Sequence record: PV874203.1
Length of the DNA: 64,000 nucleotides
Reading direction: 5' to 3' (one strand)
Source of the DNA: a phage
The notes beneath the pieces are model-generated. The model saw only the letters and a list, made by a program, of their open reading frames with translations, did no database searches and was not told the origin of the DNA. Shown in pieces: positions 31,975 through 32,631 of this stretch (positions are counted from its first letter, which is position 1; each line of letters starts with the position of its first letter). A program made the translations under genes and the position numbers.

Positions 31975-32631
31975 TTACTTATTCCAAGTAGTTGATAAGG
32001 CTTTCCAAGAGATAGGATAAAGTTTCTTCATCTCTTCGTCAATAGTTTGTGCAAACAAACGAACTTCATATTGAGCGTGTTCTGATAGGCGTTGACGACA
32101 TACTTCTGACCAGCCGTATAAGGATCCAGTCCAGATCCACTCTGTCGTCATTCCCTGAGGTAGGACAAACCGAGCTTGCTCAGGAGCAATTAGGTCAATC
32201 AATTTTTCATAATTGCTAACAGCTACTTCATACGCCTCATTAATCAATGTGAGAGCCTCTACACGGGCTTCATCTTGTAAGATGATACCAGAACCCTTAT
32301 GAAGGTCATCAGGTCGGGAGAAGATCTCTTGTGGGATAAATACCTCAACACCATCATCCTTGTACCTGCGGCTTTTCTCATTCCAGCTAAACCCTGATTG
32401 ATGCTTCCCAAGTTGACGAGCGATGGCAATAGGAGCTACACAGCGGAAGGTTACTTGTGGGTGCCTAAAAGGAGTCACATGTTTTTCACGAGCAAGAAAG
32501 TTGATGAGACGCTCATCACGCTCATTTAAATCACCTTCACGGGTTACACCAAAGGATACACGAGCTGCATTAACAACGGTTTTATCCGAGCCCATTGCTT
32601 CTACTAATGTTACTTTTAACTGATCAGACAT
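31975..32631 (-). CDS. thyX: flavin-dependent thymidylate synthase (ThyX family), variant active-site motif
   Basis: VTLVEAMGSDKTVVNAARVSF and TPFRHPQVTFRCVAPIAIARQ align with ThyX; the canonical RHR motif reads KHQ here (GKHQSGFSWNEKSRRY). Confidence 0.75.
   Translation of the reverse strand: MSDQLKVTLVEAMGSDKTVVNAARVSFGVTREGDLNERDERLINFLAREKHVTPFRHPQVTFRCVAPIAIARQLGKHQSGFSWNEKSRRYKDDGVEVFIPQEIFSRPDDLHKGSGIILQDEARVEALTLINEAYEVAVSNYEKLIDLIAPEQARFVLPQGMTTEWIWTGSLYGWSEVCRQRLSEHAQYEVRLFAQTIDEEMKKLYPISWKALSTTWNK

Follow-up and report, generated by a model that had tools for sequence, protein, structure and literature searches.

The gene at positions 31975..32631 (minus strand) of phage sequence record PV874203.1 encodes a homologue of the flavin-dependent thymidylate synthase ThyX in which the family-defining RHR triad reads KHQ. 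The stretch analysed, referred to here as the window, comprises 64,000 nt of a Kuravirus-type genome, that is, of an Escherichia coli podophage of the phiEco32/SU10 group (Gordonclarkvirinae); many such genomes match the flanking DNA at 90-96% identity, and the gene order agrees with that of phage Paul. By profile, fold and catalytic residues the product is ThyX, and by the RHRX7S signature and a flavin ligand, R165 in Thermotoga maritima (Tm) numbering, it is non-canonical.

A thyX gene with a KHQ triad

Residues were compared between 99 sequences of the variant clade described below and 119 canonical sequences, the latter set being centred on Thermotogae. The gene and the codons that matter for the comparison are as follows.

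31975..32631, minus strand: thyX homologue of the variant subfamily, 218 aa (open reading frame (ORF), PF02511, TIGR02170 and AlphaFold2 model)
32479..32481, minus strand: codon H51 (Tm H53, the active-site His), retained; 97% of the variant clade, 100% of canonical sequences
32398..32406, minus strand: codons K76-H77-Q78 (AAG CAT CAA) in place of canonical R78-H79-R80 (direct reading; HMMER against 6j61 and 1kq4; MAFFT)
32362..32373, minus strand: codons S87-R88-R89-Y90 (Tm S88-G89-R90-Y91); R88 is an extra Arg that co-varies with loss of R80
32170..32172, minus strand: codon R154 (Tm R147, in the stretch EQARFVLP), retained; invariant in both groups
32116..32118, minus strand: codon Y172 at the position of Tm R165 (Mycobacterium tuberculosis (Mtb) R190), a ligand of the flavin adenine dinucleotide (FAD) phosphate lost in the variant subfamily (alignments; PMC6514825)
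32089..32091, minus strand: codon R181 (Tm R174), retained; 99/99 variant and 119/119 canonical sequences

The ORF runs from ATG to TAA, with AAGGA 8 nt upstream of the ATG. The Pfam family Thy1/ThyX (PF02511) spans residues 8-206 (E 1.5e-44; 152.5 bits against a cut-off of 24.8), and the NCBIfam thyX equivalog TIGR02170 scored 129.2 bits, above its cut-off of 87.9. Solved ThyX structures matched by the protein include the Thermus thermophilus-type 6j61 (E 1e-27) and T. maritima 1kq4 (E 1e-23). An AlphaFold2 monomer model (pLDDT 95.1, pTM 0.89) has the ThyX fold, superposing on T. maritima ThyX with a TM score of 0.84, and the top 50 Foldseek matches of the model in the PDB were all T. maritima ThyX (TM 0.79-0.85, E ∼1e-17). 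The profiles and solved structures thus confirm that the product aligns well with ThyX, as had been proposed from the letters alone.

In the HMMER alignment, the T. maritima stretch ARQWFRHRIA-SYNELSGRY lies opposite ARQLGKHQSGFSWNEKSRRY in the query. Since the invariant ARQ upstream and NE.S.RY downstream anchor the alignment, the register of K76-H77-Q78 with R78-H79-R80 is unambiguous. Against the published ThyX motif RHRX7S (Myllykallio 2002, as quoted in PMC2826268), the query reads K76-H77-Q78-X8-S87, keeping the His and the Ser alone. The string quoted in the original prediction, GKHQSGFSWNEKSRRY, corresponds to residues 75-90, and its by-eye placement opposite the triad was correct. That prediction had also raised the worry of a canonical RHR at another place; there is none in the 218-aa protein, whose sole other R-H lies in FRHP and corresponds to Tm H59, and a mis-set alignment was rejected on the strength of this and of the two anchors. 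The gap between triad and Ser is 7 residues in canonical ThyX and 8 in the query, but the spacing was rejected as a marker of the variant because X8 is also seen in RHR-type enzymes, namely those of Mycobacterium phage Catera and Gordonia phage FortCran.

Conservation and spread of the variant subfamily

A private mutation or sequencing error was rejected as the source of KHQ, since the motif is kept in close homologues and across a deep clade. The triad is KHQ in the best 120 homologues found among 5.8 billion proteins (down to 54% identity), with one KSQ (KHQ tally, 119/121); these close homologues include proteins of Kuravirus, of Salmonella 7-11-like phages and of Chaseviridae phages of E. 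coli, Erwinia and Yersinia. When 1.84 billion cluster representatives were searched exhaustively with phmmer, 338 matched below 1e-30, and triads read in the best 150 of these (40-60% identity) were KHQ in 72, KHK in 16, RHT in 10, RHQ in 6, KHT in 5 and RHR in only 1. Cultured phages, sampled along a tblastn ranking and sorted by triad type, divide cleanly into two groups. Variant enzymes occur in Kuravirus, Pseudomonas HHBS10_2, Roseobacter CRP-114, Rheinheimera Barba, Vibrio VBP32, Streptomyces JimJam (KYA) and Bacillus 268TH004 (KYL), and canonical RHR enzymes in Thermus phiLo, Gordonia FortCran, Mycobacterium Catera, Ruegeria V13, Synechococcus S-TIP37 and S-SM1, Halorubrum Serpecor1 and Vibrio ZX1018. 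KHQ is thus found in other ThyX sequences throughout a mostly viral clade, a point on which the original prediction had called for a check. An unusual motif may have been noticed earlier in Trichodesmium, judging by the title of a 2004 report by Liu and Yang ('distinctive ThyX motifs').

Variant loci were located by a degenerate DNA pattern. The pattern KHQxGxxWNExSRRY was found in only 45 stretches among 185,579 species genomes, taxonomically scattered and mostly on contigs of 10-90 kb from metagenome-assembled genomes, and at no fewer than 120 loci (at least 120) in IMG/VR, a much smaller viral collection. In Phenylobacterium and Novosphingobium isolates, the pattern is surrounded by phage-type methyltransferase, resolvase, primosomal protein, exonuclease and DNA polymerase genes. 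A cellular core-genome origin of the exact KHQ..W-NE.SRRY pattern was rejected given the scatter of the 45 hits and the prophage-like modules around both isolate copies checked. Whereas canonical ThyX is core-genomic, the variant subfamily is viral or prophage-borne, its hosts being Proteobacteria, Streptomyces and Bacillus.

Residues kept in both sets at 82-100% are Tm H53, R74, Q75, H79, E86, S88, R90, Y91, E144, R147, R174, Q180 and E182. All of the residues for dUMP (deoxyuridine monophosphate)/uracil and for the catalytic loop are present in the query as R72, Q73, E85, S87, R89, Y90, R154 and R181 (Tm R74, Q75, E86, S88, R90, Y91, R147 and R174), and these are kept in 86-100% of the variant clade. 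Tm H53, H51 in the query, we take to be the residue that stacks on folate in T. maritima folate-complex structures. Other positions have changed together. In the variant clade, the Tm R78 position is K in 79% and R in 21%, the R80 position is Q, K, T or others, and position 89 is Arg in 94% as against G, Q or L in canonical ThyX; N163 has become S, R165 and E58 are variable, N169 and H178 are relaxed, and T55 is kept. Across 159 sequences, the combination of non-Arg at 80, Arg at 89, and loss of R165 and E58 accounts for 116 and that of R80, a residue other than Arg at 89, R165 and E58 for 32, with few intermediates, and a neighbour-joining tree gathers all 123 sequences without R80 in one clade of 125 tips. 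These alignments and the tree indicate that KHQ is the signature of a mostly viral and monophyletic branch of ThyX in which Tm 89, 165 and 58 have changed in concert.

The original prediction had the RHR arginines contacting the dUMP phosphate. This is only partly right. Basta et al. 2012 do list Tm R78, R80, S88 and R90 as direct hydrogen-bond partners of dUMP (PMC3498832), whereas PMC6514825 assigns the triad mainly to FAD. There, the RHR residues, along with Mtb S71 and R190 (Tm T55 and R165), hydrogen-bond the AMP (adenosine monophosphate) phosphate, the FMN (flavin mononucleotide) phosphate and the ribityl, and of the triad the first Arg alone is in addition in contact with isoalloxazine and dUMP. 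The counterpart of Mtb R190 in this FAD-phosphate role is R165 in the Helicobacter pylori enzyme (PMC6514825). At the two FAD phosphate/ribityl ligands, the third Arg of RHR and Tm R165, the query has Q78 and Y172, and the positions are non-Arg in 116-123 of the 159 sequences. Tm S88, R90 and Y91 matter kinetically, in the methylene-transfer step (PMC8316439). Taken together, the published roles and the conservation indicate that the variant clade keeps the residues for uracil binding and catalysis, the rebuilt part therefore being the basic cluster at the substrate phosphate and flavin diphosphate.

The variant allele is under strong purifying selection. In comparison with phage Paul, dN is 0.19 with synonymous sites saturated (pS 0.79) and the motif unchanged. 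The thyX DNA itself is 71% identical to that of Paul (window 31999..32646 against Paul 7876..8526), with flanks at 91-94%, and the allele is a mosaic replacement relative to Paul; the nearest protein in the phage database is only 83% identical to the query, and a metagenome protein (P0001) is 98% identical. Three relatives (P0121, P0217 and P0230) carry inteins with an HNH endonuclease within the motif loop (Pfam Intein_splicing), and two more (P0132 and P0213) have large insertions in this loop, whose identity as inteins was not confirmed by Pfam. The insertion site, between KHQxG(F/M) and SWNE, corresponds to codons F81/S82 of the window (∼32386..32391). Inteins characteristically home into conserved, essential sites. 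Insertion in the motif loop is as expected of a conserved, functionally critical site and was counted toward a functional protein.

Four further genes of the window bear on nucleotide supply or on proposals of DNA modification.

32644..32919, minus strand: thioredoxin (PF00085, E 2.1e-13), 12 nt upstream of thyX
35218..35751, minus strand: dCTP (deoxycytidine triphosphate) deaminase (PF22769, E 3.6e-34; TIGR02274, 107.6 bits against 92.8; phrog_1663)
20488..21123, minus strand: deoxynucleoside monophosphate (dNMP) kinase (phrog_139, E 1.8e-45)
35764..37164, minus strand: nucleotidyltransferase, 466 aa (phrog_12715; weak match to the PolyA_pol head domain), between the dCTP deaminase and exonuclease/primase genes

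The dCTP deaminase noted in the original prediction is real, with the Pfam and TIGRFAM scores listed. Neighbours were probed, with window proteins only, at 165 variant-thyX loci (the 120 viral loci listed from IMG/VR and 45 genome loci). Variant thyX was found beside primase-helicase (36 of the 120 viral loci listed and 3 of the 45 genome loci), DNA polymerase (25 and 3), exonuclease (25 and 2) and PhoH (17 and 1), and rarely beside dCTP deaminase (1 and 1) or thioredoxin (1 and 0); the Kuravirus nucleotidyltransferase was beside it in none of either set. A dedicated, subfamily-wide partnership with nucleotidyltransferase, dCTP deaminase or thioredoxin was rejected on these counts (0, 2 and 1 co-occurrences in the 165 loci listed). 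By its neighbours, variant thyX looks like an independent module for nucleotide supply in phage replication regions and not like a component of a modification cassette.

Predicted reaction and competing explanations

The gene probably, and in our judgement with good confidence, specifies a working flavin-dependent thymidylate synthase that makes dTMP (deoxythymidine monophosphate) and belongs to a distinct, largely phage-borne subfamily with a rebuilt phosphate/flavin pocket. It is an uncharacterised form of a known enzyme type. The predicted reaction is dUMP + CH2-H4folate (methylenetetrahydrofolate) + NAD(P)H → dTMP + H4folate (tetrahydrofolate), with methylene relay through the flavin N5. 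Judged from sequence, the query would be catalytically active in this way, with dTMP as its product and a role in the thymidylate pathway. The pocket for the dUMP phosphate and the FAD diphosphate would have been rebuilt, the first Arg of RHR being replaced by Lys and the third by Gln or another non-Arg residue, with Tm R165 and E58 gone and a new Arg adjoining the catalytic Ser (S-R-R-Y in place of S-G-R-Y). ThyX is a homotetramer with a bound flavin, in which three subunits contribute to every active site. R88, on a loop reaching the active site of the neighbouring subunit, may by such a relocation of charge take over part of the phosphate binding of R80, and the ADP half of the flavin may be held differently or more loosely.

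Within the phage, the dCTP deaminase would act as an upstream supplier of deoxyuridine nucleotides and the dNMP kinase in the downstream step from dTMP to dTDP. Phage dCTP deaminase, host dUTPase, ThyX and phage dNMP kinase would together shift the pool from dC to dT, as would suit a 42% GC genome (the GC content of the window) in a 51% GC host. The simplest and most likely reading is such a conversion of the dC pool to dT, independent of host ThyA. No other thymidylate synthase is named in the Kuravirus record annotations or in the literature found. Thioredoxin and thyX probably form one transcription unit; no ribonucleotide reductase was found among the window ORFs scanned, despite the thioredoxin directly upstream of thyX. 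A glutaredoxin lies at the matching position beside the variant thyX of Rheinheimera phage Barba.

Comparison with known systems places the protein closest to canonical ThyX (T. maritima TM0449, T. thermophilus 6j61, M. tuberculosis and H. pylori), with which it shares Pfam/TIGRFAM family, fold and ∼33% identity. It keeps Tm H53, R74, Q75, H79, E86, S88, R90, Y91, R147 and R174 and presumably the reaction, and differs by KHQ for RHR, by the absence of R165 and E58, by Ser for N163 and by the extra Arg at 89 (SRRY). ThyX of the chlorovirus PBCV-1 is likewise virus-encoded and has a non-Gly residue, Gln-89, after the catalytic Ser, whose side chain is able to occupy the dUMP phosphate pocket (PMC3498832). 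It is remote from the query (2cfa, E 5e-7) and resembles canonical enzymes by the residues named in that paper (Gln-75, Ser-88, Gln-89, Arg-90 and Arg-182). PolB of Streptomyces cacaoi (4p5a) is a ThyX-fold UMP/dUMP C5-methylase of polyoxin biosynthesis and, since it was recruited for a non-standard substrate, indicates that the ThyX fold can change specificity. It is less similar to the query (E 7e-19) than are 6j61 and 1kq4, so that the query is not closer to PolB than to dUMP-specific ThyX, and the setting of PolB is an antibiotic gene cluster whereas that of the query is phage replication.

Several points weigh against a working dTMP synthase in the phage. Of the three arginines assigned in the literature to the FAD phosphates or dUMP phosphate, two are missing, and activity therefore cannot be assumed. 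No published assay or solved structure of any member of the variant subfamily was found in the literature; in the HMMER alignments, both of the top PDB relatives carry the canonical RHR, and the Mtb, H. pylori and PBCV-1 enzymes are canonical by their published descriptions (PMC6514825, PMC3498832). In addition, Gordonclarkvirinae are reported to resist restriction-modification systems with no known modification pathway (PMC11990801), and sites for EcoRV (23 observed, 20 expected) and EcoKI (8 and 7) are not avoided in the window. DNA modification of an undiscovered kind in Kuravirus-type phages is thus possible.

Among the competing explanations, the one that survives best refines the reading of a dTMP synthase and does not exclude it: the product would be normal, with the flavin bound differently after loss of R80, R165 and E58, either as FMN instead of FAD or as a weakly held, exchangeable flavin. 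We regard this as possible though doubtful. The RHR residues together with Tm T55 and R165 are FAD ligands (PMC6514825), and of these and nearby positions R80 and R165 are lost, N163 has become S, N169 and E58 are variable and T55 is kept; against it, Arg at 89 and Lys at 78 may restore contacts. With the Arg clamps on the FAD diphosphate and dUMP phosphate gone, flavin usage could have changed. Literature searches on the use of FMN by ThyX, and on Kuravirus DNA modification, gave nothing useful.

A second explanation holds that the remodelled active site makes a non-canonical pyrimidine nucleotide, for example 5-hydroxymethyl-dUMP (5-hmdUMP) by hydration, not reduction, of the exocyclic-methylene intermediate, which would enter DNA and aid restriction resistance. 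5-hmdUMP is an acid-trapped intermediate of ThyX catalysis (cited in PMC3498832), the substitutions fall on residues by which flavin and substrate phosphate are positioned, and the phage has a dNMP kinase. Restriction-site content points both ways. Avoidance of restriction sites and palindromes is strong over the whole 64 kb: CCWGG (4 observed, 93 expected), GATC (150, 298), PstI (0, 18), SacI (0, 21), KpnI (0, 12), BamHI (1, 11) and EcoRI (5, 21) are depleted, and 12 palindromic hexamers, including PstI, SacI, KpnI, StuI and PmlI, are absent. Such avoidance suggests DNA exposed to restriction. The unavoided EcoRV and EcoKI sites favour modification; both belong to restriction-modification systems that Kuravirus-type phages reportedly resist, and since the sites occur at expected frequency another anti-restriction mechanism is still needed. 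The termini of phiEco32 were mapped via restriction profiling (PMC9965538), which also speaks against an altered product.

Further evidence opposes such a product. The variant subfamily occurs in many unrelated phages with replication genes as flanks, and its loci listed have the nucleotidyltransferase in 0/165 and dCTP deaminase in 2/165; Tm R174, R147, S88, R90 and Y91 are invariant or nearly so. The known phage dUMP and dCMP (deoxycytidine monophosphate) hydroxymethylases, SPO1 gp29 and T4 gp42, place a one-carbon unit onto pyrimidine C5 and are the model for an altered product, but they have the ThyA fold, not that of ThyX (PMC8989533, PMC3498832), and have as partners kinases, transferases and enzymes for excluding the canonical base. 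The window ORFs scanned yielded no such partner, and no 5-hmdU kinase, aGPT-Pplase-type gene or dTTP/dTMP-excluding enzyme was identified among them (small ORFs were not scanned). Known 5-hmdU hypermodification combines a ThyA-fold dUMP hydroxymethylase with a 5-hmdU DNA kinase/aGPT-Pplase or base-excluding enzymes; the query has the ThyX fold and no such neighbours among those ORFs. We therefore consider a non-canonical product improbable, and give equally little chance to the broader proposal that the K-H-x / S-R-R-Y subfamily has changed its product, to 5-hydroxymethyl-dUMP or another C5-modified dUMP, and supplies the missing route of Gordonclarkvirinae to covalent DNA modification. Between the alternatives of the original prediction, a tolerated variant is supported, KHQ being a clade signature with coupled changes, while an altered substrate or product has gained no positive evidence.

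That the protein is a catalytically dead or repurposed relic, such as a dUMP-binding or NADPH-oxidase protein, would fit the failed RHR motif and the loss of two phosphate-binding arginines, and is the least probable of all given the near-invariant catalytic and substrate residues in a deep clade, the strong purifying selection, the targeting of the motif loop by inteins, a score above the curated equivalog cut-off and its position as the sole thymidylate synthase named in the Kuravirus records and literature found.

The favoured reading, a dTMP synthase with a rebuilt pocket, has consequences for ThyX enzymology and phage nucleotide metabolism, all the more so if product or cofactor differs. 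If the variant enzymes are active, the RHR triad and R165 would be dispensable for flavin-dependent thymidylate synthesis, and the subfamily would represent a natural experiment in rebuilding the dUMP-phosphate/FAD-diphosphate pocket, relevant to mechanism and to the design of ThyX inhibitors. If the product were non-standard, this would be a new modification route, with ThyX as a candidate modification enzyme. A very large, mostly viral branch of ThyX lacks RHRX7S, and motif-based screens may miss or mis-filter it; one evolutionary survey filtered ThyX sequences by RHRX7S (PMC2826268). Humolli et al. speculate on dU-containing DNA, citing the dCTP deaminase and nucleotidyltransferase and leaving thyX unmentioned, and the BASEL authors singled out the Kuravirus nucleotidyltransferase gene as one that might serve DNA modification. 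If Kuravirus has a functional thymidylate synthase, this would argue against the published suggestion of dU for dT.

Other features of the window

Further genes near thyX, and a second HNH endonuclease ORF elsewhere in the window, are listed here.

31649..31972, minus strand: stand-alone Ia-domain protein of NAD-dependent ligase, 107 aa (PF22745, E 2.5e-35), starting 2 nt past the thyX stop
33165..33728, minus strand: Dps/ferritin-like 'DNA-binding protein' near thyX
33721..34215, minus strand: HNH endonuclease ORF with an HNH-like stretch, CVNHKDGNKLNNH...HRENSQH
18117..18740, minus strand: HNH endonuclease ORF (phrog_99)

The product of 31649..31972 is the Ia (NAD+-binding) domain of NAD-dependent DNA ligase alone, and is labelled 'DNA ligase' in related phages despite having no catalytic domains. 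Paul has small ORFs on either side of thyX, four towards the ligase-Ia gene and one towards thioredoxin; all are absent from the window. Since the HNH ORF at 33721..34215 fills a gap in the Paul alignment (33729..34216), it looks like a homing-endonuclease insertion. An amidoligase cluster of the phiEco32 type spans 39667..46878 (minus strand) and includes the following genes.

39667..40086, minus strand: GGACT/gamma-glutamyl cyclotransferase
40593..41789, minus strand: ORF annotated as ATP-grasp in phage Paul, with no Pfam match
42235..43926, minus strand: GATase-like protein
44345..45448, minus strand: Amidoligase_2
46072..46878, minus strand: COOH-NH2 ligase type 2

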